Positions 3,066 to 57,995 of a DNA stretch of 64,000 nucleotides are shown piece after piece. A program made the translations under genes and the position numbers. The DNA comes from Stegostoma tigrinum (Eukaryota): positions 72,276,517 through 72,340,516 of the forward strand of contig NC_081363.1 in NCBI RefSeq assembly GCF_030684315.1, given 5' to 3'. The notes beneath the pieces are model-generated. The model saw only the letters and a program-made list of their open reading frames with translations. It did no database searches and was not told the origin of the DNA. Every line of letters begins with the position of its first letter. Position 1 is the first letter of the stretch.

Positions 3066-3079
3066 CTATCGATCACTCA

Positions 3080-27658: not shown

Positions 27659-27858
27659 GGGATGGCCCATTTCCTGGAGTGATCGATCTTTTTGGAGATG
27701 GAGGTCTGATTGAGTTCCGAGCATGTCTCCTTGCAAGCCGAGGCTTTGCTACTCTTGCTCTCCCTTACTTTGGTTTTGAAGATCTACCAATATCCATGAC
27801 TGATTTTCATTTAGAATACTTTGAAGAAGCTGTAAATTATCTAAAGAAACATCCAAAG
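27659..27858 (+). CDS. Acyl-CoA thioesterase paralog B, exon 2
   Basis: ttcctaAG acceptor; [38 protein letters not shown]...[17 protein letters not shown]; AAG|GTGAG donor; phases match exons 1 and 3. Confidence 0.93.
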
Positions 27859-27989
27859 GTGAGTTCTATACAATGGAAGCCCAGAGACTTAACTTGTTAT
27901 TGAACAATGTGTTTGCAGTTGTAATGTTCCTCAATGGAATTATTGAGATACACTTATGGGGTTTCTTTTACTTCAGATATCTTGATTCT

Positions 27990-28830
27990 AGCAGTGTCTG
28001 CTGCCATTCGGTTGGTGGCATTTTTATCTCTGACGAGTGGATTCAAGTTTGACTGTAGGACTTGAGCCCAAAATTCTAGGCTGATACCAACATATGGAGT
28101 TGAGGAAACGCTTTGTCAGCGGTGCTGTCTTTTGGATGTGTTTAAATCTGTGACTCATCTGCCTCCAAGTGAATAGATTAAAGGTCCATAGATCTGTTTT
28201 GAAGAAGAACTCTGACGAGACACTGGATGCTTTCTCTACATAGATGCTGTCAGATCGAATGATTTCTCCAGCAATTTTTGTTTGGGTATTACTGTCAGTA
28301 TTTAATTAATTCAGTGAAGTGGCTCAGTGATTAGTAAAGACAGCTGAGTAGTTAGCACTGCTTCCTCACAGCACCAGCGACCCAAGTTCAATTCCAGACA
28401 GAGTGACTGTCTGTGTGAAGTTTGCATGATCCAACCCTCTATGCATTGGTTTCTGCTGGATTTCTCTCACAGTCCAAAGGTTAGGTGTATTGGCCATTCT
28501 AAATTGTCTGTGGTGTCCAGGGATGTGCAGGTTAGTTGGGTTAGCCATGGTAAATACGGACTTGCGGGGTTAGGAAAGGGAGCTGATTCTGGGTGGCATG
28601 TTCTTCAGAGGGTCAGTGAAAACTGAATGGATTGAATGGCCTCTTTCTACACTCTAGGGGATCTGTACTCATTCTGAGACACATCATAGAAACATTTATC
28701 ATTTTGCTCTTTGCACAAATTGCTACCATATTTCCTGCGTTATGACATGGTAAAACTACAGCATTATCTGTAAAATACTTTAGGATGTTCTGTAGTTGGG
28801 AAAGTGCCATATAAATGCAAGTCCTTTCTC
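27990..28830 (+). mobile_element. Old DeuSINE/SacSINE1-like element interrupted by a V-SINE (~28318-28665) and a short PLE-derived piece
   Basis: 'gtgctgtcttttggatg...gaagaaga' core and 'atataaatgcaagt' tail, recognised from memory; duplicated at +16824. Confidence 0.5.
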
Positions 28831-31175: not shown

Positions 31176-31745
31176 GTGAAGGGACCAGGTATTGGCGTAA
31201 TCGGATCTTCAAAAGGTGGAGATTTGGCTCTATCAATGGTCACGTTTTTACCACAAGTTGTAGCATCCGTTTGTATCTCTGGCTGCCACGCAAACACTAT
31301 GACTGATTTGCATTATAAAGGTATACATCTCCTCAGCTTGAGTTACGATGTAGATCGTATCGTTGTTTTGGACTCAGGAATTCTAGATATGTCCGAAACA
31401 CTTGAAAACCCCAGTACAAACAAAGGCAGCATCATCCCGTTGGAAAAAGCTGAAGGACACATCTTGTTTGTGGTGGGCGAAGGTGACAAGATCTGGAACA
31501 GCAAACAGTTTGCTGATGAGGCAATAAAAAGACTGAAAAAAAACGGCAAGGACAACTATAAGCTGCTTAGTTATCCAGGAGCTGGGCACTGTATTGAACC
31601 TCCTTGTTCTCCATTTCGTCCTGCCAAGATTGATCGGTTGTATGGACTTCCAGTGCTGTTGGGGGGAGAGGCATTAAAACACTGCTCTGCTCAACAAGAT
31701 GCTTGGGAAAAAATTCAAGACTTCCTACGTTTACATCTAGGTTGA
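31176..31745 (+). CDS. Acyl-CoA thioesterase paralog B, exon 3 (catalytic alpha/beta-hydrolase part)
   Basis: ttttAG acceptor; nucleophile motif GSSKG, Asp in VGEGD, His in YPGAGH; TGA stop; ends LHLG with no PTS1. Confidence 0.95.
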   Translation: MKGPGIGVIGSSKGGDLALSMVTFLPQVVASVCISGCHANTMTDLHYKGIHLLSLSYDVDRIVVLDSGILDMSETLENPSTNKGSIIPLEKAEGHILFVVGEGDKIWNSKQFADEAIKRLKKNGKDNYKLLSYPGAGHCIEPPCSPFRPAKIDRLYGLPVLLGGEALKHCSAQQDAWEKIQDFLRLHLG

Positions 31746-32039
31746 AATGATTTGGATTTAACAAGATTCCTCTTTACCTAATGCATGTTATTTAGTATAA
31801 TATGTTGTCATAAACTGCATAGTAATTATTTAATATGATCCACTACATGTAAGGAAGACAGTCCAAGACTTTCTGAAATTTGTATTTCCAACCACCAGTA
31901 TCTCTATTTTTTGGGTGAGGGTGGAAAAATTAAACTTTAACTTAATGCCACAGTGTCAAAATATTTCTTCCTTTATTGAGTAGTTCACATTTGCACTGAA
32001 ACTATTTTGCATTTTTCATCAATCTTCACTGCAATGGGT

Positions 32040-33540
32040 ACAGGTAACATTCCAGCAAAAGCTGAAAATTGGAAAATAGAAGTGATGGAAGATCACAGGA
32101 AACTTAGTCACCCAGGAAGTAATTTGAACAAATTGTTGAAGCTGGAGCTGACAAGTACCTCAGTACTGATAGGCTTCATACGATGGTGTTAAAGGGCGTG
32201 ACTAGTCAGATAATTGATGCATTGATTCTAATATTTCAAAATTCCCGAGAATAGGGATATGTACCATTAGATCGGAAGATAGGGAATATAAAAGGGAGGG
32301 AAATGGGAAGCAGGGAACAAGTCGACTAGCTTAATTACTGTCATAGGAGAAAAAGAAGCGATTTTTAAAGATATTCCAGCAAGGCACTTTATTTTTTAAA
32401 AAAATTAAGGTAATCTGGCAGAGTCAACATGGTTTTGTGAAAAGAAAATCATGTCTAACCAACTTATTGTGGTTCTTTCAGGAAATAACATGCTCCACAT
32501 AAAGGGAAACTGGTGGATGTGCTGCATTTAGATTTCCCGAAGGCATTACTAAGGAGTCACATGAAAGGTCTTATTGCGTATAAAGGTACTGTGTAAGGGG
32601 GTAACATTGACATGGATGGAAAATTGGCTAACAAACAGGAAATAGTTTTTCCAGAAGTGGGTGTCTTTTCTGATTGCCAAGATTTATAAGTGGTCTGTGA
32701 AGATCACTACTAGGCCTCAAATTGTGACAATTTAACTTTGGGATGAAGAGACTAAAGGTATGTTTGCTAAATTTATTGACACAAAGATAGGTAGAAAAGT
32801 AAGTTTTGACATGGACATAAAGAAATGAGTGAACAAAGGTCTGGTAAATCGGAGTATAATGAGAGAAAATGTGATGATGTCTGTATTGATAATAAAACAA
32901 ATGTATGTTATTTAATTGAGAGATTGTGGACGTCTGAGAAACGGAGGGATCTGGGTAGCTTCCGATATTAGTTATGAAATGTTAGTGTGCAGGAGTAGCA
33001 AATAATTAGCAAAATTAATAGCGTATTATTGATTACAAGGGGAATTGAATACTAAAGGAGAGTGGTAACACTACGTTCATTAAAGCTGAGGCCACCTTTA
33101 GAGTACTGTGTATCATTTAGGTCTCCTTATTTAAGAAAGGATGTAAACATGTTGGATGCAGTTAAGGTTTATTGGACTGATGCTTACAATTGGCAGGTTG
33201 TCTTATGATAAAAGTGTGGACAAGCTAGACTTGCCTTCACTGGAATTTAGAAGGTTAAGATATGACTAGATTGAAGCATGTAGAATCCTAAAGCGTCTTT
33301 ATAGTGTAGATTTGAAGAGGATATTGCCTTTTGTGGGAGAATGTACAGTTAGGAGTCACTCATAACATAGATGAGGTGAAACCAAATGTGGATATTTTTA
33401 TGGCAGAGGTGGATAGATTCTTGCCAGGAGGTGAAAGGCTGTGGGAGGATTAGGCAGGAATGTGAAGATGAAGTCCTGATCAGAACAGCCAAGATATTAT
33501 TAAATGGAGGAGCAAGCTATTCCTACTGCTAAACCTTCAT
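32040..33540 (+). mobile_element. Highly decayed CR1 LINE
   Basis: Remnants such as 'gagtcaacatggttttgtgaa', 'tttagatttcccgaaggcatt', 'gctaaatttattgacacaaag'. Confidence 0.65.
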
Positions 33541-33817
33541 TTTGTATGGAACTGAAAAAAATTTACTTCTCAGATTTCATTTTGTTTTATCCGCCTTTCC
33601 TCCTCACTACACCTAAAGATGTTGATGCAGGTTAGACTTCGGTGTCATGGCTTCCAACTAAACATTCATTATCTGTAACCATAGACTGTGAATGTTCACT
33701 GCCAACTTAGTCCTATTTACTGAGCTGGGTGAAGTGTGGAGAAATTCACAGCTGAGCCTTGTTTACTCCTACTGTGCATAGTGCATTTCAAGCATAGATT
33801 GAGCATTGTTGGGTAAG

Positions 33818-36720
33818 AATCATAGAACAATACAGCGCAGAACAGGCCCTTCGGCCCTCGATGTTGTGCTGACCTGTGAACTAATCTAAGCCCCTCCCCT
33901 TACACTGTCCCATCATTATCCATATGCTTATCCAAGGACTGTTTAAATGCACCTAATGTGGCTGAGTTAACTACGTTGGCAGGCAGGCCATTCCATGCCC
34001 TTACCACTCTGAGTAAAGAACCTACCTCTGACATCTGTCTTAAATCTATCACCCCTCAATTTGTAGCTATGACCCCTTGTATATGCTGAAGTCATCATCC
34101 TCGGAAAAAGACTGTCACTGTCCACCCTACCTAATCCTCTGATCATCTTGTAGGTTTCTATTAAATCCCCTCTTAGCCTCCTTCTCTCCAGTGAGAACAG
34201 ACCCAAGTCCCTCAGCCTTTCTTCATAGGGCCTGCGCTCCAGGCCAGGCAACATCTTGGTAAATCTCCTCGGTACCTTTTCCACTGCTTCCACATCCTTC
34301 CTCTAATGGGGTGACCAGAACTGCACGCAATATTCCAAATGAGGCTGCAATAGCATTTTGTACAGTTGCAGCATGACATCACGGCTCCGGAACTCAATCC
34401 CTCTTCCAATAAAACCTTAAACACCGTAAGCCGCCTTAACAGCACTATCAACCTTGCTGGCAACTTTCAGGGATCTATGTACATGGACACCAAGATCCCT
34501 CTGCACATCTACACTACCAAGAATCTTTCCATTTATCCGGTATTTTGCCTTCCTATTATTCCTCCCAAAGTGAATCACCTCACGTTTATCCGTATTAAAC
34601 CCCATTTGCCACCTTTCAGCCCTTTCACCTTTCTGCAGTTTATTCAAGTCTCCCTGCAACATTCTTCCACACTCTCCACCACTCCATCGACTTTAGTGTC
34701 ATCTGCAAACTTACTAACCCATCCACCAATGCCTGCGTCCAAGTCATTTATAAAAATGACAAACAGCAGTGGTCCCAAAACAGATCCTTGAGGCACACCA
34801 CTAGTAACTGGACTCCAGGCTCAATATTTTCCATCAACCACCACTCGTTGCCTTCTTACAGAAAGCCAGTTTCTAATCCAAACTGCTAAATCTCCCTCAA
34901 TCCCGTGCCTCTGTATTTTCTCCAATAGCCTATCATGTGGATCCTTATCCAAGGCTTTACCAAAGTCCATGTACACCACGTCAACTGTCCTACCCTCATC
35001 CACATGCTTGGTCACCTTCTCCAAAAAACTCAGAGGTTTGTGAGACACAGCCTGCCCTTGACAAATCCATGCTGACTATCTCCCATCATATTGTTGCTTG
35101 CTAGATGATTATAAATTCCTAATTCTTATAATCCTTTCCAAAACTTTTCCTACAACAGACATAAGGCTCACAGGTCTGTAATTACCTGGGTCGTCCCTAC
35201 TGCCCTTCTTGAACAAGGGCACAACATTTGCAATCCTCCAGTTCTCTGGTACTAAACCTGTAGACAATGAGGACTCAAAGATCAATGCCAAAGGCTCCGC
35301 CACCACCTCCCTAGCTTCGCAGACAATCCTCGGAAAAATCCCATCTGACCCAGGGATTTATCTCCCTTCACACCTTCTAGAATTGATAACGCCTCCTCCT
35401 TACTTAATCTTAACCTTAATCCTTTCAATTCTAGTAGCCTGTAACTCAGTGATCCCCTCTACAATATTCTCCTGTTCCTCCGTGAAAACAGATGAGAAAT
35501 AATCATTTAGCACCTCTCCACTCTCCACAGGGTCCGCACACAATTTACCACCTCTGTCTTTGACTGGCCCTATTCCTCCCCAGTCATCCTCTTATTCCTG
35601 ACATACCTGTAGAAAGCTTTAGGGTTCTCCTTTATTCTACCAGCCACTGTCCAGTCACGTCCCCTCCTTGCTCTTAACTGTCTCTTTAAATCCTTCCGAG
35701 CTAATCTGTAACTCTCCATCGCCTCATCTGAACCATCGTGTCTCATCGTCACATAAGCCTCCCTCTTCCACTTAACAAGAGATACAATTTCTTTCGTAAA
35801 CCACAGTTCCCTTACCTTATCGCTTCCTCCCTGCCTGACAGGGACATACCTATCAAGGGCACACAATATCTGTTCCTTAAACCAGCTCCACATTTTTGAT
35901 TGTCCCCATCCCCTGCGTTTTGCTAACCCATTGTATGCCTCCTAAGTCTTGCCTAATCACATTATAATTGCTCTTCCCCCATCTATAACTCTTGCCGAAT
36001 GGCATATTCCTACCCCTTTCCATTGCTAAAGTAAACATAACCAAATTATGGTCACTCTCTCCAAAGTGCTCACCTTCCACTAAATCAAACACCTGGCCTG
36101 GTTCATTACCAAGTACCAGATCCAGTGTGGCCTCCCCTCTTGTCGGCCCTTTGACGTACTGAGTCAGGAAACCCTCCTGCACACATTGGACAAAAACTGA
36201 TCCATCAGACATGCTAGAGTTATAGCATTTCAAGTCAATGTTAGGGAAGTTAAAGTCTTCCATAATGACTACCCTGTTCTTTTCACTCCTGCCCAGAATA
36301 GTTTTGCTGATCCTCTCCTCCACACCCCTGGAACTTTGTGGGGGCCGATTAAAAACTCCCAGCAGTGTTACCTCTCCCCTCCTGTTTCTGACCTCAGCCT
36401 ATACCACCTCGGTAGATGAGTCCTCATCAAAAGTTCTTTCAGCCACTGTTATACTGTCCTTGACTGACAAAGCCAAACCTCCCCCTCTTTTACCACCTTC
36501 CTTGACCTTAATTGAAAGATCTAAACCCTGGAACCTGCAACATTCATTCCTGACCCTTCTCTATCAATGTCTCCGAAATGGCCACAACATCGAAGTCCCA
36601 GGTACCTTATCCAAGCTGCAAGCTCACCTACCTTTATTCTGGATATTCCTGGTGTTAAAGTAGACACACTTCAACCCAGCTTGCTGTCTGCCAGCACACT
36701 CGTGACAGTGAGGTCCTGTC
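33818..36720 (-). mobile_element. CR1 LINE ORF2 (APE endonuclease + RT), frameshifted
   Basis: VVIMEDFNFP, PTRGEATLDLVL, SDH, PGNYRPVSL, YMDFGKA; duplicated at 50642-53544. Confidence 0.9.
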
Positions 36721-37269
36721 CATGTCCTCCCTACGCTCATCCTCCTGTGTGCTAGTGGACATTGTCATCGTGGTTCTCTCTTGCTGCACTCTGTCCCATA
36801 TTCTATGGATGATACTGCCCTTTTTCTCCAGTCTCAGCTATTTGTATGAAGGTTTCATAAGAAGATTAGACCTTCTTCAAATGGCTAGATTAGCTAAAAT
36901 GTTCAAAAGTGAGATTGTTAATTTTTTGTTAGATAAGAATATCAAAGCAAGTTAGCGATGGCTGAAGGGAAATTTACTTGTACCACATAATATCATGAGA
37001 GCTCTATACAGACAAGATGAAAGTGACTTATTAGGAGAAGACAATAACCAGGGTGCATAAAGATATATGGCATGGAAACAGGCCATTTTCTTGCCTTATC
37101 TACACCTGCCATCATATCTTTTATTCCTGCCATTGGGTAATTTTTATTTTCAGAATTTCTATTGGGTGTGTCAGGAATGATCTTTTGTCAGAGGCCTCCA
37201 GAGGAAATGTTCTCTCTGTATCCAATTTTACCTAACCCCATCCCCCTAATCATTTCTATCCTGCTCTCC

Positions 37270-40200
37270 CTACCCACCTTGAACTTGGTTGAACTCTTCA
37301 AAGAGGTGACTAAAGTAGTGAACAATGGAATGTATTTGATTTTTTAAATTTGGATATTCGGATGCCATTTGATATAGTATCAATACAGACCTTTGGCTGA
37401 AGTTGAGTCTCAAGCACAGAAGAAATGAGAGCACAAGCATGCCATTCAGCCCCTTGAGCCTGCTCTGACATTTGGTAGGATCATGAAAGATCTGATTGTG
37501 GCCTTAACTCAATTTTTCTGCCTGACACACTTTCCCCATCCAATAACCCTTGATTTCCTTGTCAATCAAATGTCCATCTAACTCAGACTTGAATATTTTC
37601 AATAAACTAACTTCTGCTGCTCTCTGAGAAAGGGAATTCCTGGGAGGTATAATGCTCCGAAAATAAAAGTCCTCATTTGTCTTAAGTGAGAGACCTACTC
37701 TTTAAATTGTTCCCCGTTTCTAAACTCTCTCACAAAGGAAGCATCTTCTCAGCATTTATCCAATCAAATCCCCGAAGAATCTTCAATAAAATCTCCTTTT
37801 ATCCTTCTAAATTCCAATGGTGACTGCTCAACCTTTCCTCATACCATGACACCTTCATCCTCAGAAAATGCTAAACGAGCCTTCTTTGAATTTACTCTAC
37901 TGCAGTTATTAAAGAAAGGATATGAGAGTCCAAAACTACATGATACTCCAAGTAGAGTCTCTAAGGCCTTGCACGAAAGCCAAAGTCCCCACCTTGTATT
38001 GTATTCCATTTGAATTTTTTAAATAGACTACTGTGATTGTTATGCCCACATTTTGTTATTCATGTGTCAGATCGTGCATTGTGTACATCATGTATCAGAT
38101 CCCTTCATCCAAAAGTTCTCCAATCTCTCTCTTCAAATAACTTTAAATGGATTGAAGACAAATGATTGGTGGCGAAATTAGCTGAGTAGCAGGAGGTAGA
38201 GTGGGGATAATAGATTGGAATGCTAAATGGCAGGATGTGACATGTGGAGTCCTCAAGAGACACGTTTGAATTCTCAGTTATCCACTGAATTTATTAACAA
38301 CACAGACGGGATTGAAATGATATATCGAAATTTACCAATGACACAAAGTTAAGTGGCATTGTACATAGTATAAATAGAAGCATAAAATTTCAAAGAAATC
38401 TGATTGGTTATTTGAATGAGAAAAATTGTGGGAAATAGATTACAATGTTGAAGAAGTGATGTCATCTGCTTTGTGTTTAACAAAGATAGAATAGGATGCT
38501 TTCTAAAGTGAGAACGAGAAACAGAAACAGAAAAGAGAAACAGAAGGGGTCCGAAGAAAGTTAAAGAATTGGGCACGTAGAATATTAAAATGTCAAAAAA
38601 CATGAGAAAAATAATTAGAATGATTAATGATTACTGGCCTTACATCTTCAGACTCATACTCAACAATTTCATAGATGTGCCAATCCTTAGACCACAGGTA
38701 GAGTGCTGCAAGGGTTCGGTGCAGCACACTTTGTGAGTGTTACAGTGATTTAGGAAGGAGTGCAGCATGGATTTACCAAAATAATACCTGACTGAAACAG
38801 TAAAGCTGTAAGATTTCACAAGCTATTGTTATATTGATTGCAATTTAGAAGGTTCAGGGGCTGATTTTATTTCAGTATTCAGGATGTTAGGGGAGACAGA
38901 TAGACACTGATTCCACCAGGGGATTTACATTCACTTTCAAAGTGGAACTTTTAGTGGTCTGATGGGTGAACAGGGATGATATTTCTATGACCTTGGAAAG
39001 GGCTTTAAAGTAACTGAGGGTTGGGTTGTGGAAGATTCAGAATAGGAGACGCCTATGCTTACAAAGCAAAAGGATATGGCAGCATTGCAGGGCAGGCCAG
39101 AGTAAGTCAGGAAAGGACAAAGTGTATAAGCATAAATGTGCTCATTTGTTTATAAGGCCTGGGTTCAAATCCCACCTACTCCAGAAGTGTGTAAAAATAT
39201 CTCTGAACATGTTGATAAGAAAATATCTATGAGCCATAAAAAAAAATCAAATGTGGGTAAATGATAAAAAGACAACATTAATGGCTTCTTACTTAAATAT
39301 GCATTGTATTCCCAAACATAATAAATGAATTAATGGAATAAATAGAGGTTAATGGTTGGAATGATCTTATAGCCATTACAGAGATATGGTTACAAGAAGA
39401 ACAAAGCTCGGACCTAAATGTTCGGGGGCATATGACTTTTTGAAAGGATAGGCAGGAAGGCAAGACTGATGGAGACAGCTTTGCTATACGAGATGGGTTA
39501 AGTATGATAGCAAGAAATAATGATGTGGAATTCGTACAGGTGGAGGTAAGAAGTACAAGGGAAAGAAGACCCCGATGGTAGTAACCTAAAGGTATCATAC
39601 CAAGTCGCTGTTGTGTAGGGCAGAGAATAAATCATTAGATATTAAGGGCATGTTTAAAACAAAAGTATGTTAATCATGGCAAACATTTAATCATCATGTA
39701 GATTGGGAAAATCAATTTAGTGGCGATAGCCACAAGGACGAATTCATTAAAGTGGATCTAAGAAAATTTCTTCATACAAAATGTTGTGCATCCAACTAGA
39801 GACTACGCTACTTTGGATTTGCCGATACATAATGAGCCAGGTTTAATAAATGATCTTGGACAAAAGATCCTCATAGGAACAGTGACCGTAACATGGTAGA
39901 AGTTAGTGTTCAGTTTGAGGAGGAGAAAACAGGGCAGAAACAATTGTGCCAAACTTATGTAAGGGTATTTGCAAACAGGTGTGTGTGGAATGGACTGGCA
40001 ATGGAGTTTAGCAGAAAAGTCGGTTAAGGTACAATGGCTGAAATTTAGGAATATAGTTTGTAATTGACAGTAAACATGTATGTTAGTGAGGAAGTAGGAT
40101 TTGAGGAAGTGGATAAAGTGATGCTTATCCAAATAAGTTAAAGATAATATCAAAGTGAAAAAAAAATTATACAATATGGCAAAGACTTGTGTTAAATCAG

Positions 40201-40380
40201 AGAATTAGGAAAATTTTAAAAACCACCAAAGCTTGATTGAAGAAATGGAGTAATAAGCTAAGAGGACAAATTAGCAAATATGATAAAAACAGTGAAAGCA
40301 TCTTGAATATATGAAAAGAATGAGATAGGCAAAAATGAAAATCGACTCCTTAGAGAACAAGGCTGGGGAATAATGATACT
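37270..40380. mobile_element. Nested decayed CR1 fragments, both orientations
   Basis: Endonuclease remnant 'gatcttatagccattacagagatatggttac' and RT remnants. Confidence 0.6.
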
Positions 40381-40680
40381 GGTGAGACAAAGTCTAGTGG
40401 TATTATTGGCTAGACTATTAATCCAGAAATTTAGCTGATGTTCTAGAGTTCCAGGTTCAAATCTCTCCAGGGCATATGGTGGAATTTCAATAATGAATCT
40501 GGAAGTAAGGGTCTAATGATGACCATGAAACCATTGTTGATATTCAGGAAAAGCCCCTCTGGATTTACTAATGTCCACTGGGAGGGGAATCTATCATCCT
40601 TACCTGGTGACTCCAAGGCCACAGTAATGTGGTTGACTGTTACTGACATACTCTGCCTCGTGTGCCATTAGGGATGGGCA

Positions 40681-42615
40681 ACAAATCCTGGCCTAGCCAG
40701 AAAAGCCCCTGTGAGTAAACAAAAGTGGGACCCAGGAAATAGCCCAGGAGTTGAACAAGTAGTTCGGAGTTAAATAAGTACTTTGCATCAGTCTTCACAA
40801 TCGAGAACACTATAAGTATTCCCTAATTATAAAATAATCCAGGGGCTAAAGGGAGAGGGCCATAACGAATGACTATTATTAGGGCAACTAATGGGACCAA
40901 AAACTGGTAAGTCCCTCGTAAATTGGATGCTTGGAATTTAAAGGAAACAGCTAGAGATAGTGGACCACACTGATACTGTTTTCTGGGTAGTGTTATTAGA
41001 ACAAAGATACCTAAGGGTTCAGAGATAATGGGAACTGCAGATGCTGGAGAATCCGAGATAACAAAGTGTGAAGCTGGATGAACACAGAAGGCCAAGCAGC
41101 ATCTTAGGAGCACAAAAGCTGAGCCTTCATCAGATAGTGTGACAGATAGGCAGGGTGGTTAAGAAGGTAATAAAATGTGAGGCTGGATGAACACAGCAGG
41201 CCAAGCAGCATCTCAGGAGCACAAAAGCTGACGTTTCGGGCCTAGACCCTTCATCAGAGAGGGGGATGGGGAGAGGGAACTGGAATAATTAGGGAGAGAG
41301 GGGGAGGCGGACCGAAGATGGAGAGTAAAGAAGATAGGTGGAGAGAGTATAGGTGGGGAGGTAGGGAGGGGATAGGTCAGTCCAGGGAAGACGGACAGGT
41401 CAAGGAGGTGGGATGAGGTTAGTAGGTAGATGGGGGTGCGGCTTGGGGTGGGAGGAAGGGATGGGTGAGAGGAAGAACCAGTTAGGGAGGCAGAGACAGG
41501 TTGGACTGGTTTTGGGATGCAGTGGGTGGGGGGGGAAGAGCTGGGCTGGTTGTGTGGTGCAGTGGGCTGGTTTAGGGATGCAGTAGGGGAAGGGGAGATT
41601 TTGAAACTGGTGAAGTCCACATTGATACCATTAGGCTGCAGGGTTCCCAGGCGGAATATGAGTTGCTGTTCCTGCACCTTCGGGTGGCATCATTGTGGCA
41701 GTGCAGGAGGCCCATGATGGACATGTCATCTAAAGAATGGGAAGGGGAGTGGAAATGGTTTGCGACTGGGAGGTGCAGTTGTTTGTTGCAAACTCTCCTC
41801 CGACACTTCCGCCATTTACAATCCGACCCCACCACCCAAGACATTTTTCCATCCCCACCCCTGTCTGCTTTCCGGAGAGCCGCACCCCCATCTACCTACT
41901 AACCTCATCCCACCTCCTTGACCTGTCCGTCTTCCCTGGACTGACCTATCCCCTCCCTACCTCCCCACCTATACTCTCTCCACCTATCTTCTTTACTCTC
42001 CATCTTCGGTCCGCCTCCCCCTCTCTCCCTATTTATTCCAGTTCCCTCTCCCCATCCCCCTCTCTGATGAAGGGTCTAGGCCCGAAACGTCAGCTTTTGT
42101 GCTCCTGAGATGCTGCTTGGCCTGCTGTGTTCATCCAGCCTCACATTTTATTACCTTCTTAACCACCCTGCCTATCTGTCACACTATCTGATGAAGGCTC
42201 AGCTTTTGTGCTCCTAAGATGCTGCTTGGCCTTCTGTGTTCATCCAGCTTCACACATTGTTATTTCGGATTCTCCAGCATCTGCAGTTCCCATTATCTCT
42301 GAACCCTTAGGTATCTTTGTTCTAATAACACTACCCAGAAAACAGTATCAGTGTGGTCCACTATCTCTAGCTGTTTCCTTTAAATTCCAAGCATCCAATT
42401 TACGAGGGACTTACCAGTTTTTGGTCCCATTAGTTGCCCTCTCTCTTTAGCTCCGAGGTTATTTTATAATTAGGGAATACTTATAGTGTTCTCAATTGTG
42501 AAGACTGAAGCAAAGTACTTATTTAAATCCGAACTACTTGTTCAACTCCTGGGCTATTTCCTGGGTCCCACTTTTGTTTACTCACAGGGGCTTTTCTGGC
42601 TAGGCCAGGATTTGT
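40681..42615. repeat. Large inverted repeat: arms 40681-41443 and 41878-42615, spacer ~435 bp
   Basis: acaaatcctggcctagcc... versus ...ggctaggccaggatttgt; mirrored ORFs 40823-41113(-) and 42208-42450(+); repeated at 57505-59439. Confidence 0.93.
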
Positions 42616-43572
42616 GACTCTCCGTGACTCCCTTGTTCGCTCCACACTGCCCTCCAACCCCACCACACCCGGCACCTTCCCCTGCAACCGCAGGAAATGC
42701 TACACTTGCCCCCACACCTCCTCCCTCACCCCTATCCCAGGCCCCAAGATGACATTCCACATTAAGCAGAGGTTCACCTGCACATCTGCCAATGTGGTAT
42801 ACTGCATCCACTGTACCCGGTGTGGCTTCCTCTACATTGGGGAAACCAAGCGGAGGCTTGGAGACCGCTTTGCAGAACACCTCCGCTCAGTTCGCAACAA
42901 ACAACTGCACCTCCCAGTCGCAAACCATTTCCACTCCCCCTCCCATTCTTTAGATGACATGTCCATCATGGGCCTCCTGCACTGCCACAATGATGCCACC
43001 CGAAGGTTGCAGGAACAGCAACTCATATTCCGCCTGGGAACCCTGCAGCCATATGGTATCTATGTGGACTTCACCAGTTTCAAAATCTCCCCTTCCCCAA
43101 CTGCATCCCTAAACCAGCCCAGTTCGTCCCCTCCCCCCACTGCACCACACAACCAGCCCAGCTCTTCCCCCCGACCCACTGCATCCCAAAACCAGTCCAA
43201 CCTGTCTCTGCCTCCCTAACCGGTTCTTCCTCTCACCCATCCCTTCCTCCCACCCTAAGCCGCACCCCCATCTACCTACTAACCTCATCCCACCTCCTTG
43301 ACCTGTCCGTCTTCCCTGGACTGACCTATCCCCTCCCTACCTCCCCACCTATACTCTCTCCACCTATCTTCTTTACTCTCCATCTTCGGTCCGCCTCCCC
43401 CTCTCTCCCTATTTATTCCAGCTCCCTCTCCCCATCCCCCTCTCTGATGAAGGGTCTAGGCCCGAAACATCAGCTTTTGTGCTCCTGAGATGCTGCTTGG
43501 CCTGCTGTGTTCATCCAGCCTCACATTTTATTATCTTGGAATTCTCCAGCATCTGCAGTTCCCATTATCTCT
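41172..43572. mobile_element. Composite Penelope-like insertion, chimeric copy at the duplication junction
   Basis: Inverted pLTR, fold-back segment, then direct GIY-YIG half and pLTR; 5' part matches the 59440 copy, 3' end and right flank match the 26748 copy. Confidence 0.9.
42060..42096 (+). ncRNA. Minimal type-I hammerhead ribozyme motif in the PLE pLTR
   Basis: CTGATGA-A-GGGTC-TA-GGCCC-GAAAC-GTC; the same motif on the - strand at 41226-41260 and in the duplicate copies. Confidence 0.75.
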
Positions 43573-44482
43573 GACCCTTGGTCCTCTGATGCTGCTTGGT
43601 CTGCTGTATTCATCCAACTCTACACCTTGTTATCAAAGATCCTATGGTACTATTTTTTACAAAAGGAGCAGGGAGAACCTGGCTAATAGCAGTCAGTTTT
43701 ATAAACTGTTCCTCTCTGCACAGATGCTGCCAGACTGGCTGAGTTTCTCCAGCATTTTTGTTTTTGTTTCCTAAAATAAAGGTTGCCTGATTGTTATCTG
43801 ACTGTCATGTTTGGATATCTGTGAGAGTTTGCTGAGCTGCATGTCTCCTACATTGTAAACTGTACCTGTGGAACACAACACTTGATTGGTTTTGAAATGC
43901 TTTGAGGCATCTATTTATCATGTAAAATGCTACAGGAATGTGTGTTTGTTTTGATTTGAGGTAATTTAATCAATTTATAACACTGTTGACAGTATTACAA
44001 TGCAAATCTATTACTGTCCATATTTAAAGTTGCAAAAACATAAACAACTGGTTGAACTGTAGTTCTGAGCAAACTAAGTAGATACTTTTAAGGGAGAAAG
44101 GAATGGGAAGTTATGCTGAAATGAAATTGGATAGAAGTACATGTGGAGCATAAACATGGACAAGTTGAGCCAAATTGCTGCCTTTTATGTTGTGTGTTGT
44201 GTTCAATGCACAGATTGTTGATGTTTTTAATCAACCTGTTGAGACACATAGTGACACACCTCTGGAGCCGGTGCGTCTTAAACCATGCTTTCTGACCGAG
44301 TGGTAAGGTCAGATTGGGTCATAAAACAGATTGCAAAATTATAGCTTCTAACGTAATTGAGACAGCTTATAGAAAAGACCTTGGCCGTTTTCACTGTGAT
44401 ACAACAATTTCAAACCGTTTTTAAAAACATTTCCCTAAGTTTATTAACAGTGGTTTATGTTTTATTTGTTCTGTTTCCTAAG

Positions 44483-44682
44483 GGGATGGCCCATTTCCTG
44501 GAGTGATCGATCTTTTTGGAGATGGAGGTCTGATTGAGTTCCGAGCATGTCTCCTTGCAAGCCGAGGCTTTGCTACTCTTGCTCTCCCTTACTTTGGTTT
44601 TGAAGATCTACCAATATCCATGACTGATTTTCATTTAGAATACTTTGAAGAAGCTGTAAATTATCTAAAGAAACATCCAAAG
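44483..44682 (+). pseudogene. Duplicated ACOT exon 2 (no own exon 1 or promoter)
   Basis: Identical to 27659-27858 with intact splice sites. Confidence 0.85.
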
Positions 44683-47600
44683 GTGAGTTCTATACAATGG
44701 AAGCCCAGAGACTTAACTTGTTATTGAACAATGTGTTTGCAGTTGTAATGTTCCTCAATGGAATTATTGAGATACACTTATGGGGTTTCTTTTACTTCAG
44801 ATATCTTGATTCTAGCAGTGTCTGCTGCCATTCGGTTGGTGGCATTTTTATCTCTGACGAGTGGATTCAAGTTTGACTGTAGGACTTGAGCCCAAAATTC
44901 TAGGCTGATACCAACATATGGAGTTGAGGAAACGCTTTGTCAGCGGTGCTGTCTTTTGGATGTGTTTAAATCTGTGACTCATCTGCCTCCAAGTGAATAG
45001 ATTAAAGGTCCATAGATCTGTTTTGAAGAAGAACTCTGACGAGACACTGGATGCTTTCTCTACATAGATGCTGTCAGATCGAATGATTTCTCCAGCAATT
45101 TTTGTTTGGGTATTACTGTCAGTATTTAATTAATTCAGTGAAGTGGCTCAGTGATTAGTAAAGACAGCTGAGTAGTTAGCACTGCTTCCTCACAGCACCA
45201 GCGACCCAAGTTCAATTCCAGACAGAGTGACTGTCTGTGTGAAGTTTGCATGATCCAACCCTCTATGCATTGGTTTCTGCTGGATTTCTCTCACAGTCCA
45301 AAGGTTAGGTGTATTGGCCATTCTAAATTGTCTGTGGTGTCCAGGGATGTGCAGGTTAGTTGGGTTAGCCATGGTAAATACGGACTTGCGGGGTTAGGAA
45401 AGGGAGCTGATTCTGGGTGGCATGTTCTTCAGAGGGTCAGTGAAAACTGAATGGATTGAATGGCCTCTTTCTACACTCTAGGGGATCTGTACTCATTCTG
45501 AGACACATCATAGAAACATTTATCATTTTGCTCTTTGCACAAATTGCTACCATATTTCCTGCGTTATGACATGGTAAAACTACAGCATTATCTGTAAAAT
45601 ACTTTAGGATGTTCTGTAGTTGGGAAAGTGCCATATAAATGCAAGTCCTTTCTCATTGTGCCAGGCTTCCCACGGAGACCGCCTTAGCCAAGTTCTGTAC
45701 TTTTCTTCAGTTATTCTTCTCCCTCATTCAATACCCTTTCTGAAATCATCTAAGTAACCGCTTGCTGTCTTGAGCCAAATCCCTCAGAAATACTGCCTAA
45801 ATAACATCCATTCCTGTCCTTTCCCAATTTGACTCAATGGAAAATGTTTCTGTCTTTCCCTCCCTACTTCCCTCCATTTCAAAACTCCTCAACGTATCCC
45901 AACTTTAAACTACTGCTCCATTCACATCTCTGCCATGTCGTCAACCACTGAGTCCATTACACCTAATACCCTTCTTTCTCTCCCTACTTTGCCAGCAGCA
46001 ATTTTGCATTCTAATGACTCCAATCTCTTGCATATCTCCTTCCTATTTCCCTATCATTAGCAGCCACGGTTAACAGCTGTTGGTGTGTCTCATGCTGACT
46101 TCTCTCCTCGCAGCTGCTCCACCTCACTCACCTTCATTGAAAGACTTTTTAAAGCGTACCATCTTAGCTACCTAATAATACCTTCACTGACCTAACATCA
46201 GTTTTTGTCTGATTTCTTCTCTGTGAAGGATAAGGATGCTTTTCACTATCTATATGCATATTTGTAAGCGTGTATTCGTGCAGGCTGTTGTCTGGGTCAA
46301 GTGTCTTCACTTTGCATTAAAAGGTTCAAGTAGCAGTGGTCCCACAGGACAATAGGGCTGCTATCTCACTGGAGAGAGATGGCTGGTGGTGGTTTAACCT
46401 GAGGGTCACTATGCCTCAGTCGAAGAGAGAAGTTAAGTCGGTGATTCCTTCAAAGTAACCTCAGCTGGTGCAGCAATTGAACCCACCCACACTTCTGGCA
46501 TCACTCTGCATTGCAAACAGCCATTCAGCAATTTTACCCTCATTCCCAGTTCAAAATTCAGGGATTCCTGATATAAGAAGTCAAGCTAGTGTGCTGTTGA
46601 TCAGATTAAAGGACTCCTGCAGCCAGGAAGATTCAAATTCGGAGTTGGCCAGCTGTTTGCTCAGCTGCTGAAATGACTTCATGGACCTTAAAGTGCTGTG
46701 TGGGAGCCCCACAATTGTTTAATTATTGAAGTGATTATCAGTCCACCAACACTTTGGGCAACTGCTGCTGCCACCAAGAACAAGTCATTCACATCTTTCT
46801 GCTTTTCCAAAGGTGAAAAATATGAATACACCAAGAATGTTTGAGATTCCCAATCATCATGGATTATGTCACACACCCAGTCAATATTTTTATGGGGGAG
46901 TCACTTTCCTTCTTGTGTTTTGGACCTGGATTTTTGAGCCTGATATAAAGGAAATAACTTGCTTTAGTATAATGCCTTTAATAAACATAAGAGATTCCAA
47001 AACACTTCACAGTTAATGAGCCCATTGGAACTTACATCAGCATTTTAATATGGCAGTCCACTGTGCTGAAATAGACTTGGAAACAGATTGTGTAAGGTGG
47101 TAAGAAGCTTTCAGCGAAGGAGAGAATTTGGACCCCGAGACCCAGATAACTTTCTTTTCCAGGAAAGTGAGGTTGGCAATCACAGGCCAATTAGCATCTT
47201 TAGCCTGATTTATGTTTGAATTAAGGATAACATTTCACTTGTCAAAACTATTTTGAACTGGGATTTCAAAAGATGATATTCAAGTTTAACCTGTTTTCAG
47301 GAAGAAACAGGTGATTGCACAAATATTTTTAAAATGTTGACAAGTAAGCTGGTAACACTTCATCAGTCAACATATCACAATCTCTTAATGGAAATGTTTT
47401 TATTTTGGATGATTACATCTTTGTGGGGAAAAAAAACTGAAAAGAGATTGCTGGATTTGGTTTATCCACAATCAAACAACACATTATTATGTGTGGGTTT
47501 GAATCTCAGTTTTCTCTTCATCTTAGTTGGCTTCTCCCTCCCATTAATTGTTGCATATCTCCTCTTTTTCAATATGTTGTTCTCACAACTGTTCCTTGAT

Positions 47601-47999
47601 GACATTCAAATGTATTTTTCAGGTCTGTTGCTTAGTCAACAAACACACTAGGTCCCTTTATCACCACAACATTGTTAAATCATGGTGTGCAATCATATTC
47701 TTATCCTAAATGATGGTGACCCAAGGGAAATAAATTGCTTCTTGATTGAATGTTCCTTTTCATGATATGTTCTTCAATTCTGTTTAAGTACATCATTTTT
47801 GAAGGTTACTTTTGATGATTTCTAATATTGAAATTGAAATGAAGCTAATATTTGCTGTATCATTTCTTAACACACTTCACTGTCAGTGTTACAAATAAAT
47901 AGTTTTTTTAATGCTTTTTTTTTACATGAATACTGAAGGAACACACAGGAATTATTTAGACTTAACGTATGTTGCAATAATAGATTTTGAATTTTTTAG

Positions 48000-48569
48000 G
48001 TGAAGGGACCAGGTATTGGCGTAATCGGATCTTCAAAAGGTGGAGATTTGGCTCTATCAATGGTCACGTTTTTACCACAAGTTGTAGCATCCGTTTGTAT
48101 CTCTGGCTGCCACGCAAACACTATGACTGATTTGCATTATAAAGGTATACATCTCCTCAGCTTGAGTTACGATGTAGATCGTATCGTTGTTTTGGACTCA
48201 GGAATTCTAGATATGTCCGAAACACTTGAAAACCCCAGTACAAACAAAGGCAGCATCATCCCGTTGGAAAAAGCTGAAGGACACATCTTGTTTGTGGTGG
48301 GCGAAGGTGACAAGATCTGGAACAGCAAACAGTTTGCTGATGAGGCAATAAAAAGACTGAAAAAAAACGGCAAGGACAACTATAAGCTGCTTAGTTATCC
48401 AGGAGCTGGGCACTGTATTGAACCTCCTTGTTCTCCATTTCGTCCTGCCAAGATTGATCGGTTGTATGGACTTCCAGTGCTGTTGGGGGGAGAGGCATTA
48501 AAACACTGCTCTGCTCAACAAGATGCTTGGGAAAAAATTCAAGACTTCCTACGTTTACATCTAGGTTGA
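48000..48569 (+). pseudogene. Duplicated ACOT exon 3 (intact reading frame)
   Basis: Same translation as 31176-31745. Confidence 0.85.
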
Positions 48570-51500
48570 AATGATTTGGATTTAACAAGATTCCTCTTTA
48601 CCTAATGCATGTTATTTAGTATAATATGTTGTCATAAACTGCATAGTAATTATTTAATATGATCCACTACATGTAAGGAAGACAGTCCAAGACTTTCTGA
48701 AATTTGTATTTCCAACCACCAGTATCTCTATTTTTTGGGTGAGGGTGGAAAAATTAAACTTTAACTTAATGCCACAGTGTCAAAATATTTCTTCCTTTAT
48801 TGAGTAGTTCACATTTGCACTGAAACTATTTTGCATTTTTCATCAATCTTCACTGCAATGGGTACAGGTAACATTCCAGCAAAAGCTGAAAATTGGAAAA
48901 TAGAAGTGATGGAAGATCACAGGAAACTTAGTCACCCAGGAAGTAATTTGAACAAATTGTTGAAGCTGGAGCTGACAAGTACCTCAGTACTGATAGGCTT
49001 CATACGATGGTGTTAAAGGGCGTGACTAGTCAGATAATTGATGCATTGATTCTAATATTTCAAAATTCCCGAGAATAGGGATATGTACCATTAGATCGGA
49101 AGATAGGGAATATAAAAGGGAGGGAAATGGGAAGCAGGGAACAAGTCGACTAGCTTAATTACTGTCATAGGAGAAAAAGAAGCGATTTTTAAAGATATTC
49201 CAGCAAGGCACTTTATTTTTTAAAAAAATTAAGGTAATCTGGCAGAGTCAACATGGTTTTGTGAAAAGAAAATCATGTCTAACCAACTTATTGTGGTTCT
49301 TTCAGGAAATAACATGCTCCACATAAAGGGAAACTGGTGGATGTGCTGCATTTAGATTTCCCGAAGGCATTACTAAGGAGTCACATGAAAGGTCTTATTG
49401 CGTATAAAGGTACTGTGTAAGGGGGTAACATTGACATGGATGGAAAATTGGCTAACAAACAGGAAATAGTTTTTCCAGAAGTGGGTGTCTTTTCTGATTG
49501 CCAAGATTTATAAGTGGTCTGTGAAGATCACTACTAGGCCTCAAATTGTGACAATTTAACTTTGGGATGAAGAGACTAAAGGTATGTTTGCTAAATTTAT
49601 TGACACAAAGATAGGTAGAAAAGTAAGTTTTGACATGGACATAAAGAAATGAGTGAACAAAGGTCTGGTAAATCGGAGTATAATGAGAGAAAATGTGATG
49701 ATGTCTGTATTGATAATAAAACAAATGTATGTTATTTAATTGAGAGATTGTGGACGTCTGAGAAACGGAGGGATCTGGGTAGCTTCCGATATTAGTTATG
49801 AAATGTTAGTGTGCAGGAGTAGCAAATAATTAGCAAAATTAATAGCGTATTATTGATTACAAGGGGAATTGAATACTAAAGGAGAGTGGTAACACTACGT
49901 TCATTAAAGCTGAGGCCACCTTTAGAGTACTGTGTATCATTTAGGTCTCCTTATTTAAGAAAGGATGTAAACATGTTGGATGCAGTTAAGGTTTATTGGA
50001 CTGATGCTTACAATTGGCAGGTTGTCTTATGATAAAAGTGTGGACAAGCTAGACTTGCCTTCACTGGAATTTAGAAGGTTAAGATATGACTAGATTGAAG
50101 CATGTAGAATCCTGAAGCGTCTTTATAGTGTAGATTTGAAGAGGATATTGCCTTTTGTGGGAGAATGTACAGTTAGGAGTCACTCATAACATAGATGAGG
50201 TGAAACCAAATGTGGATATTTTTATGGCAGAGGTGGATAGATTCTTGCCAGGAGGTGAAAGGCTGTGGGAGGATTAGGCAGGAATGTGAAGATGAAGTCC
50301 TGATCAGAACAGCCAAGATATTATTAAATGGAGGAGCAAGCTATTCCTACTGCTAAACCTTCATTTTGTATGGAACTGAAAAAAATTTACTTCTCAGATT
50401 TCATTTTGTTTTATCCGCCTTTCCTCCTCACTACACCTAAAGATGTTGATGCAGGTTAGACTTCGGTGTCATGGCTTCCAACTAAACATTCATTATCTGT
50501 AACCATAGACTGTGAATGTTCACTGCCAACTTAGTCCTATTTACTGAGCTGGGTGAAGTGTGGAGAAATTCACAGCTGAGCCTTGTTTACTCCTACTGTG
50601 CATAGTGCATTTCAAGCATAGATTGAGCATTGTTGGGTAAGAATCATAGAACAATACAGCGCAGAACAGGCCCTTCGGCCCTCGATGTTGTGCTGACCTG
50701 TGAACTAATCTAAGCCCCTCCCCTTACACTGTCCCATCATTATCCATATGCTTATCCAAGGACTGTTTAAATGCACCTAATGTGGCTGAGTTAACTACGT
50801 TGGCAGGCAGGCCATTCCATGCCCTTACCACTCTGAGTAAAGAACCTACCTCTGACATCTGTCTTAAATCTATCACCCCTCAATTTGTAGCTATGACCCC
50901 TTGTATATGCTGAAGTCATCATCCTCGGAAAAAGACTGTCACTGTCCACCCTACCTAATCCTCTGATCATCTTGTAGGTTTCTATTAAATCCCCTCTTAG
51001 CCTCCTTCTCTCCAGTGAGAACAGACCCAAGTCCCTCAGCCTTTCTTCATAGGGCCTGCGCTCCAGGCCAGGCAACATCTTGGTAAATCTCCTCGGTACC
51101 TTTTCCACTGCTTCCACATCCTTCCTCTAATGGGGTGACCAGAACTGCACGCAATATTCCAAATGAGGCTGCAATAGCATTTTGTACAGTTGCAGCATGA
51201 CATCACGGCTCCGGAACTCAATCCCTCTTCCAATAAAACCTTAAACACCGTAAGCCGCCTTAACAGCACTATCAACCTTGCTGGCAACTTTCAGGGATCT
51301 ATGTACATGGACACCAAGATCCCTCTGCACATCTACACTACCAAGAATCTTTCCATTTATCCGGTATTTTGCCTTCCTATTATTCCTCCCAAAGTGAATC
51401 ACCTCACGTTTATCCGTATTAAACCCCATTTGCCACCTTTCAGCCCTTTCACCTTTCTGCAGTTTATTCAAGTCTCCCTGCAACATTCTTCCACACTCTC

Positions 51501-54500
51501 CACCACTCCATCGACTTTAGTGTCATCTGCAAACTTACTAACCCATCCACCAATGCCTGCGTCCAAGTCATTTATAAAAATGACAAACAGCAGTGGTCCC
51601 AAAACAGATCCTTGAGGCACACCACTAGTAACTGGACTCCAGGCTCAATATTTTCCATCAACCACCACTCGTTGCCTTCTTACAGAAAGCCAGTTTCTAA
51701 TCCAAACTGCTAAATCTCCCTCAATCCCGTGCCTCTGTATTTTCTCCAATAGCCTATCATGTGGATCCTTATCCAAGGCTTTACCAAAGTCCATGTACAC
51801 CACGTCAACTGTCCTACCCTCATCCACATGCTTGGTCACCTTCTCCAAAAAACTCAGAGGTTTGTGAGACACAGCCTGCCCTTGACAAATCCATGCTGAC
51901 TATCTCCCATCATATTGTTGCTTGCTAGATGATTATAAATTCCTAATTCTTATAATCCTTTCCAAAACTTTTCCTACAACAGACATAAGGCTCACAGGTC
52001 TGTAATTACCTGGGTCGTCCCTACTGCCCTTCTTGAACAAGGGCACAACATTTGCAATCCTCCAGTTCTCTGGTACTAAACCTGTAGACAATGAGGACTC
52101 AAAGATCAATGCCAAAGGCTCCGCCACCACCTCCCTAGCTTCGCAGACAATCCTCGGAAAAATCCCATCTGACCCAGGGATTTATCTCCCTTCACACCTT
52201 CTAGAATTGATAACGCCTCCTCCTTACTTAATCTTAACCTTAATCCTTTCAATTCTAGTAGCCTGTAACTCAGTGATCCCCTCTACAATATTCTCCTGTT
52301 CCTCCGTGAAAACAGATGAGAAATAATCATTTAGCACCTCTCCACTCTCCACAGGGTCCGCACACAATTTACCACCTCTGTCTTTGACTGGCCCTATTCC
52401 TCCCCAGTCATCCTCTTATTCCTGACATACCTGTAGAAAGCTTTAGGGTTCTCCTTTATTCTACCAGCCACTGTCCAGTCACGTCCCCTCCTTGCTCTTA
52501 ACTGTCTCTTTAAATCCTTCCGAGCTAATCTGTAACTCTCCATCGCCTCATCTGAACCATCGTGTCTCATCGTCACATAAGCCTCCCTCTTCCACTTAAC
52601 AAGAGATACAATTTCTTTCGTAAACCACAGTTCCCTTACCTTATCGCTTCCTCCCTGCCTGACAGGGACATACCTATCAAGGGCACACAATATCTGTTCC
52701 TTAAACCAGCTCCACATTTTTGATTGTCCCCATCCCCTGCGTTTTGCTAACCCATTGTATGCCTCCTAAGTCTTGCCTAATCACATTATAATTGCTCTTC
52801 CCCCATCTATAACTCTTGCCGAATGGCATATTCCTACCCCTTTCCATTGCTAAAGTAAACATAACCAAATTATGGTCACTCTCTCCAAAGTGCTCACCTT
52901 CCACTAAATCAAACACCTGGCCTGGTTCATTACCAAGTACCAGATCCAGTGTGGCCTCCCCTCTTGTCGGCCCTTTGACGTACTGAGTCAGGAAACCCTC
53001 CTGCACACATTGGACAAAAACTGATCCATCAGACATGCTAGAGTTATAGCATTTCAAGTCAATGTTAGGGAAGTTAAAGTCTTCCATAATGACTACCCTG
53101 TTCTTTTCACTCCTGCCCAGAATAGTTTTGCTGATCCTCTCCTCCACACCCCTGGAACTTTGTGGGGGCCGATTAAAAACTCCCAGCAGTGTTACCTCTC
53201 CCCTCCTGTTTCTGACCTCAGCCTATACCACCTCGGTAGATGAGTCCTCATCAAAAGTTCTTTCAGCCACTGTTATACTGTCCTTGACTGACAAAGCCAA
53301 ACCTCCCCCTCTTTTACCACCTTCCTTGACCTTAATTGAAAGATCTAAACCCTGGAACCTGCAACATTCATTCCTGACCCTTCTCTATCAATGTCTCCGA
53401 AATGGCCACAACATCGAAGTCCCAGGTACCTTATCCAAGCTGCAAGCTCACCTACCTTTATTCTGGATATTCCTGGTGTTAAAGTAGACACACTTCAACC
53501 CAGCTTGCTGTCTGCCAGCACACTCGTGACAGTGAGGTCCTGTCCATGTCCTCCCTACGCTCATCCTCCTGTGTGCTAGTGGACATTGTCATCGTGGTTC
53601 TCTCTTGCTGCACTCTGTCCCATATTCTATGGATGATACTGCCCTTTTTCTCCAGTCTCAGCTATTTGTATGAAGGTTTCATAAGAAGATTAGACCTTCT
53701 TCAAATGGCTAGATTAGCTAAAATGTTCAAAAGTGAGATTGTTAATTTTTTGTTAGATAAGAATATCAAAGCAAGTTAGCGATGGCTGAAGGGAAATTTA
53801 CTTGTACCACATAATATCATGAGAGCTCTATACAGACAAGATGAAAGTGACTTATTAGGAGAAGACAATAACCAGGGTGCATAAAGATATATGGCATGGA
53901 AACAGGCCATTTTCTTGCCTTATCTACACCTGCCATCATATCTTTTATTCCTGCCATTGGGTAATTTTTATTTTCAGAATTTCTATTGGGTGTGTCAGGA
54001 ATGATCTTTTGTCAGAGGCCTCCAGAGGAAATGTTCTCTCTGTATCCAATTTTACCTAACCCCATCCCCCTAATCATTTCTATCCTGCTCTCCCTACCCA
54101 CCTTGAACTTGGTTGAACTCTTCAAAGAGGTGACTAAAGTAGTGAACAATGGAATGTATTTGATTTTTTAAATTTGGATATTCGGATGCCATTTGATATA
54201 GTATCAATACAGACCTTTGGCTGAAGTTGAGTCTCAAGCACAGAAGAAATGAGAGCACAAGCATGCCATTCAGCCCCTTGAGCCTGCTCTGACATTTGGT
54301 AGGATCATGAAAGATCTGATTGTGGCCTTAACTCAATTTTTCTGCCTGACACACTTTCCCCATCCAATAACCCTTGATTTCCTTGTCAATCAAATGTCCA
54401 TCTAACTCAGACTTGAATATTTTCAATAAACTAACTTCTGCTGCTCTCTGAGAAAGGGAATTCCTGGGAGGTATAATGCTCCGAAAATAAAAGTCCTCAT

Positions 54501-57500: not shown

Positions 57501-57995
57501 GGCAACAAATCCTGGCCTAGCCAGAAAAGCCCCTGTGAGTAAACAAAAGTGGGACCCAGGAAATAGCCCAGGAGTTGAACAAGTAGTTCGGAGTTAAATA
57601 AGTACTTTGCATCAGTCTTCACAATCGAGAACACTATAAGTATTCCCTAATTATAAAATAATCCAGGGGCTAAAGGGAGAGGGCCATAACGAATGACTAT
57701 TATTAGGGCAACTAATGGGACCAAAAACTGGTAAGTCCCTCGTAAATTGGATGCTTGGAATTTAAAGGAAACAGCTAGAGATAGTGGACCACACTGATAC
57801 TGTTTTCTGGGTAGTGTTATTAGAACAAAGATACCTAAGGGTTCAGAGATAATGGGAACTGCAGATGCTGGAGAATCCGAGATAACAAAGTGTGAAGCTG
57901 GATGAACACAGAAGGCCAAGCAGCATCTTAGGAGCACAAAAGCTGAGCCTTCATCAGATAGTGTGACAGATAGGCAGGGTGGTTAAGAAGGTAAT

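Follow-up and report, generated by a model that had tools for sequence, protein, structure and literature searches.

The window analysed here, a stretch of 64,000 bases of zebra shark (Stegostoma tigrinum) sequence, contains a 17-kb head-to-tail repeat that is joined inside a hybrid of two Penelope-like copies. Two questions follow from this arrangement: whether the repeat belongs to the animal or to the assembly, and by which process the hybrid at its centre was formed.

Structure of the tandem repeat

Comparison of the window with itself aligned 25794-43573 with 42618-60397 at an offset of 16,824; this alignment of 17,780 bp contains 29 mismatches and is free of gaps. The repeat is gap-free from 25794 to 60397, in agreement with the initial annotation, which had the offset of 16,824 holding throughout. 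Most of the mismatches (27 of 29) fell in a 956-bp Penelope-like arm present in three copies, which we denoted as A, M and B. The distal arm had been placed at 59440-60396; its homology with A spans 59442-60397.

25794..42617, plus strand: repeat unit 1, 16,824 bp, starting at the onset of the A/B homology
42618..59441, plus strand: repeat unit 2, 16,824 bp
25794-26749, plus strand: arm copy A
42618-43573, plus strand: arm copy M
59442-60397, plus strand: arm copy B

The interiors of the two units differed at only 2 of 15,868 bp (0.013%), without any indel. Both differences were transitions (A/G), located at 27245/44069 and 33290/50114. The window holds no N, although a filled gap would also leave none.

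Target sites of the insertions

Arm A forms the 3' portion of a longer plus-strand arm, which carries a reading frame for reverse transcriptase (RT) and GIY-YIG endonuclease, in an insertion within intron 1 of an ACOT-family gene, and arm B lies in a second insertion of rearranged structure. In both insertions two arms stand back to back, and both are bounded by target-site duplications, as listed here together with the edges of the middle insertion.

23513..23526, plus strand: left target-site copy of A, 14 bp, one mismatch to 26753-26766
23527..26752, strand not assigned: insertion A in ACOT intron 1, an inverted minus arm to about 24400 and a long plus arm
26753..26766, plus strand: right target-site copy of A
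41156..41171, plus strand: left boundary of the middle insertion, formed by the left target-site copy of B with no partner at the right
43577..43590, plus strand: right boundary of the middle insertion, formed by the right target-site copy of A
57980..57995, plus strand: left target-site copy of B, 16 bp, identical to 60396-60411
57996..60395, strand not assigned: insertion B, a minus arm, a rearranged middle part in which target DNA is repeated in inverted orientation, and the plus arm 59442-60397
60396..60411, plus strand: right target-site copy of B

The two edges of the middle insertion matched each other over 6 bp only, with one mismatch. Since M is flanked by the left target half of B and the right target half of A, it is not an insertion of its own, and an independent origin of M was rejected because it has no target-site pair. 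These target-site halves are evidence independent of the diagnostic letters described below. A third insertion in the window, at 3071-4309, has a target-site duplication of 15 bp with one mismatch.

The insertions also show internal rearrangements. The minus arm of insertion A consists of a short 3' arm (23524-23800) joined to an inverted internal RT segment (23788-24400, 98.7% identical to 24913-25525). The region of insertion B (57505-59439, and also 40681-42615) carries an inverted copy of roughly 470 bp from its left target DNA, along with 275 bp of arm; 11 substitutions and about 25 bp of indel sequence separate the two copies. An inverted repeat of 763 bp is part of insertion B. The ends of fold-back mini-elements correspond to 43440-43445 (joints at 58082-58085 to 58884-58889), and about 43258-43260 is where two of the arms in the window begin.

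The middle arm is a hybrid of A and B

The plus-strand arms A and B have the same orientation and differ at 27 of 956 sites (97.2% identity). In the three-way arm comparison, M agreed with B at all 21 diagnostic sites from 42709 to 43346 and with A at all six from 43422 to 43533, with no letters unique to M and no gaps in it. If the 27 sites were randomly ordered, one perfect switch from B to A would have a probability of 7e-6. The initial annotation had described this switch from the sequence, and its observations were confirmed: the change of type at these positions, the individual letters quoted (C at 43346 versus T at 26522, CT versus TG at 60246-60247, and cccgaaacatc versus cctgaaacgtc), and the identity of M's right flank with that of A. 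The left flank of M is that of B.

42618..43573, plus strand: middle chimeric Penelope-like arm M, of B type up to 43346 and of A type from 43422 on
43347..43421, plus strand: switch interval, a 75-bp tract shared exactly by A and B (or 43272-43421, leaving site 43346 out of account)

The mapping of the switch to 75 bp stands as far as the letters and the interval are concerned, but its left bound depends on the single site 43346, at which T is private to A. If this T was missing from the donor, the interval widens to 43272-43421. Five other arms in the window were compared as well, in an alignment covering 23 of the 27 diagnostic sites. To the left of the switch, M carries three B-private letters (43061, 43099, 43173). 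To the right, it has two A-lineage letters (43422, 43469) that are absent from B and from both inner arms of B, while three B-private letters (43423, 43530, 43533) are missing from it. Later mutation of B's 3' end was rejected as the cause of the switch, because M shares A-lineage letters to the right and such mutation fails to explain the pattern. None of the six A-type sites is more than 152 bp from the end of the element.

The switch interval is 81% pyrimidine and ends 22 bases before a hammerhead-like core at 43444; the region 43218-43442 as a whole is 75-87% pyrimidine. The 75-bp tract is the third longest identical tract between A and B, the longest being 91 bp, and it holds 8% of their identical bases, or 10% when weighted by squared tract length. 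The initial annotation had placed the crossover in a polypyrimidine tract just 5' of the hammerhead. This position needs no special cause, because 43272-43421 is the best-matching 150 bp of the pair (one mismatch). The ribozyme was rejected as the cause of the breakpoint, given that it acts on RNA and that the interval holds so small a share of the identical bases. Its nearness to the breakpoint looks incidental.

Element family and hammerhead-like core

By its domains and motifs, the element fits the description of Neptune-type, endonuclease-containing (EN+) Penelope-like elements (PMC8557442, in excerpt). The frame of A gave an RVT_1 match (E 1.1e-5) and that of M a GIY-YIG match (E 5.4e-4), both just short of the Pfam cut-off. 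The GIY-YIG endonuclease motif could be read in translation as VVYCI..LYIGET, and CNRRKCYTC between RT and endonuclease fits the CX2-5CxxC motif that the excerpted text of PMC8557442 uses to define EN+ Penelope-like elements. Insertions A and B both have an inverted truncated arm, a one-sided tail and a target-site duplication.

43444..43471, plus strand: minimal hammerhead-like core, A-type (CTGATGA, stem II, GAAA, then CATC), a pattern match

This core pattern occurs at 10 places, and the predicted cleavage site is at 43471. A search for Rfam hammerhead models found no match at the gathering threshold, nor when E values up to 10 were admitted, which gave three chance-level hits. In a single-strand fold of the candidate core the hammerhead did not form. 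Hammerheads of Penelope-like elements are usually minimal (PMC6155905, in excerpt). The cores of A and M (26620, 43444) have GAAACATC in place of GAAACGTC, and that of B (60268) has an altered stem II base; judged from the letters, each of these changes may weaken self-cleavage.

The ACOT-family gene and the annotated model P0038

The gene that hosts insertion A, of the acyl-CoA thioesterase (ACOT/BAAT) family of fat metabolism, has three exons with GT-AG introns and 453 codons.

22452..23043, plus strand: exon 1 of the ACOT/BAAT-family gene, outside the repeat
27659..27858, plus strand: exon 2, identical copy at 44483-44682
31176..31745, plus strand: exon 3, identical copy at 48000-48569
37846..37951, plus strand: first exon of P0038, a 291-aa model spliced across the junction to the duplicated exons 2-3

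The product agrees at each of its residues (453 of 453) with P0001, a protein of Stegostoma tigrinum that bears an ACOT/BAAT-family name. The product contains both ACOT domains (N-terminal PF04775, E 2.4e-35; C-terminal PF08840, E 8.1e-58), and the GxSxG, Asp and His motifs of the ACOT/BAAT family read as GSSKG, EGD and GAGH. The original gene is intact, and the extra exons 2 and 3 have no copy of exon 1. Splicing of exon 1 to the second exon copies would give the same protein. Exon repetition was rejected as a source of a new protein, since the order 1-2-2'-3' shifts the frame and meets a stop at codon 272. The public model P0038 ('ACOT6-like', 37846-37951 + 44483-44682 + 48000-48569) is a predicted model without the N-terminal domain, and it exists only through the duplication.

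Several further features of this gene family were seen in the window. Exon 2 is one codon shorter in both units (GD-GG) than in the whale shark and bamboo shark proteins (GDEGG). Two outward-facing copies of ACOT exon 1, at 8335-8845 (minus strand) and 62036-62546 (plus strand), are 98.8% identical with unrelated flanks, which suggests that they were duplicated or converted recently. On the minus strand, a piece at 2-55 resembles exon 2. Directly upstream of ACOT exon 1, 17796-22240 consists of 99 copies of a 45-bp pyrimidine-rich unit with 97% matches, an array that is open in several frames.

Copy number in public contigs

Contigs from four runs of one study (X13, X14 and X16 from sample S7, X15 from sample S8) were compared with 43574-63573. 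They break in the repeat and cannot span the junction. The length-weighted depth of long contigs in the unit was 9.3, 8.8, 19.6 and 11.2 for X13 to X16, respectively. Outside the repeat (60400-62000), all 20 values ranged from 0.77 to 2.45 times the unit depth and none was near 0.5 or 0.67, while a two-copy unit would predict 0.5. These values come from rows with listed differences and a depth under 50, with rows of high-copy repeats dropped, and some of them are sums or remainders and lean high. A contig that merges two exon-1 paralogues outside the repeat stood at 1.9-3.2 times the unit depth, against an expectation of 2.0 for a one-copy unit and 1.0 for a two-copy unit, provided that the genome holds only two copies of this exon. 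The contig over the inverted target copy, of which there are two per unit, stood at 1.6-2.4 times the unit depth. Samples S7 and S8 therefore probably have one copy, an estimate that is indicative only, as the normalisation used short stretches at 60400-62540. Across 44241-56913, the summed contig depth was 2-5 times that of a single long contig, even in repeat-poor bins; such sums do not measure copy number.

At the two sites that distinguish the units (27245/44069 and 33290/50114), the unit-2 letter was found in 8 of 8 site-by-run cases and the unit-1 letter in none. This result has a probability of 0.004 if the letters are equally common and the outcomes independent, and it should be noted that contigs drop variants. 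The single-copy appearance of S7 and S8, together with the presence of unit-2 alleles only, indicates that the duplication is probably not fixed in the species. Compared with unit 2, the public contigs showed 2 differences in about 10,300 bp. At 45443 and 47705, the long contigs of all four runs match neither unit. Their source is therefore probably not the assembled animal, and they do not discriminate between an artefact and a variant private to that animal.

Origin of the duplication

We consider the duplication to be probably real rather than an artefact. For the formation of M we favour, at about an even balance of probability, an unequal crossover between A and B within 43347-43421 that duplicated the intervening DNA. 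Two older Penelope-like insertions, 16,824 bp apart and each with its own target-site duplication, would have mispaired through their 97%-identical 956-bp arms and recombined within this interval, duplicating the DNA between them with exons 2 and 3 of the ACOT-family gene included. The event would have taken place in a living germ line and not in the assembly, and by crossover rather than by a one-way template switch. The resulting duplication would be young and carried by some animals only. It may also be close to neutral, because an intact gene remains and the extra exons lack exon 1.

The substrate agrees in part with what is known of non-allelic homologous recombination (NAHR). With an identity of 97.2%, the pair reaches the level of 96-97% at which human CNV breakpoints show an enrichment of short LINE pairs (PMC4344489, in excerpt). 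For classical NAHR, the available text of PMC9675761 quotes a requirement of more than 100 bp of perfect identity, and the exchange tract here has 75 bp, with 91 bp in the longest tract and 150 bp if one mismatch is allowed. The initial annotation had called M the expected product of NAHR between two copies in the same orientation. The geometry and the mismatched target halves support this reading in part, but the perfect tract is shorter than quoted and a template switch yields the same product. The reciprocal product, a deletion of ACOT exons 2-3, likewise follows from the geometry but is expected under crossover only.

An assembly artefact is the strongest alternative and, in our judgement, an unlikely one that has to be taken seriously. 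Two paths through the same 16.8 kb, separated by haplotype or by error, would have been joined via the shared repeat, and polishing or consensus calling would have made the switch. Samples S7 and S8 look single-copy with unit-2 alleles only, and the divergence of the units does not exceed that of alleles (2 in 15,868 bp compared with 2 in about 10,300 bp). Short reads anchored in the flank of A could cover the A-type sites, which lie no more than 152 bp from the arm end, so that a misjoin might look like a switch once polished. Furthermore, most of the remaining false duplications in recent long-read assemblies share a scaffold (PMC9516828, in excerpt). However, a gap, half depth and raised heterozygosity are the usual marks of false duplications in that source, whereas no gap and no indel was found at the repeat, and the very low divergence of the units (2 in 15,868 bp) is the opposite of raised heterozygosity. 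The single-copy contigs of S7 and S8 probably represent animals other than the assembled one. To join B to A, accurate-read assemblers would have no exact overlap above 91 bp to work with. It should also be noted that units from two homologues look alike whether meiosis or the assembler joined them.

A real duplication formed by replication is less probable again. Here a one-way template switch from B back to A, break-induced or microhomology-mediated, would have produced the same junction, and the deletion product need never have formed. The perfect tract of just 75 bp fits such a switch, as does the observation that most homologous junctions at human transposable elements (TEs) are under 40 bp and are thought not to reflect classical NAHR (PMC9675761), and the 763-bp inverted repeat in insertion B could stall replication. 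Nevertheless, the junction has no extra templated insertions, no nearby new mutations and no indels, and 956 bp at 97.2% identity is workable for ordinary recombination.

We regard an RNA-templated origin as very improbable. The Penelope RT would have copied an unspliced read-through RNA of about 17 kb from A to B, primed at its own homologous locus. A precedent exists in Adineta vaga, where Penelope ends brought an intron-containing host gene, flanked by two direct pseudo-LTRs, to a new site (PMC3846280, in excerpt); the duplicated segment here also lies between two direct 3' arms, and both private changes are in unit 1. However, no new target-site duplication and no inverted arm was found, and the switch, which an RNA template should have placed at an RNA boundary, lies off the recurrent element boundaries seen in the window (the fold-back ends at 43440-43445 and the arm starts at 43258-43260) and upstream of position 43471, where cleavage is predicted. 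In addition, transcription would need to run through a likely poly(A) signal at 31929, and an intron on the sense strand would need to be retained. The position of these boundaries outside the interval and the lack of a new target site account for the low standing of this reading.

Least credible is a breakpoint elsewhere in the arm (e.g., in the last 40 bp) whose apparent position was later shifted by gene conversion: conversion tracts of 150-230 bp are plausible and contig depth points to thousands of near-identical family copies as donors, but a second event would be needed in a repeat with only 2 changes in 15.9 kb, and the 3' part of M equals A at six of six sites without patchiness.

Age and relation to known rearrangements

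The epaulette shark has a mutation rate of 7e-10 per generation, and the rate spans tenfold (PMC10587355, in excerpt). If the units began identical, the duplication would be about 90,000 generations old (11,000-325,000 from the count of 2 alone). For units derived from two homologues, an age as low as a single generation is possible.

If real, the event belongs to a well-known class, transposon-mediated rearrangement. It resembles the human TE-mediated rearrangements of PMC9675761 in its same-orientation pair, in-register chimeric element and short perfect homology. It differs from the cases in the excerpted text in that the repeat is a Penelope-like arm in a shark rather than Alu or LINE-1 and is known here from assembled sequence, and its 16.8 kb compares with a median near 1.1 kb for human TE duplications in the same source. 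Similarly, LINE-LINE NAHR (PMC4344489) involves direct repeats of about 97% identity with crossovers mapped between paralogous differences, but the available text centres on pairs over 4 kb, whereas the homology here is 956 bp. In the literature surveyed at the level of titles and abstract openings, no such Penelope-like rearrangement in sharks was found, which is weak evidence of absence; inversions in the virilis group are credited to another transposon (PMC6278893, in excerpt).

The parent insertions resemble Neptune-type elements as excerpted from PMC8557442 and PMC3846280, with which they share RT, CX4CxxC, GIY-YIG and 5' truncation, as well as an inverted truncated arm, a tail at one end, a target-site duplication and a putative minimal hammerhead motif. 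Unlike those elements, M is no insertion and is read as a recombinant. The locus also has features in common with the false duplications described in the available part of PMC9516828, in that near-identical adjacent copies yield an extra annotated gene, P0038. It differs from them in the absence of a gap, the very low divergence and the exact-register junction inside a repeat.

On the sequence at hand, the most likely account of the locus is a tandem duplication that is transposon-mediated, young and present in some animals only. Whether real or artefact, it is a single event with no sign of a functional effect. If it is an artefact, P0038 is a false gene gain. If the RNA-templated account were true, Penelope elements would duplicate host exons in place via RNA and not through passive homology. 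If the duplication is real, the very abundant, near-identical Penelope-like copies in this shark would be substrates for recombination, as Alu and LINE-1 are in people, and could thereby alter the copy number of genes in a lineage whose point-mutation rate is very low.
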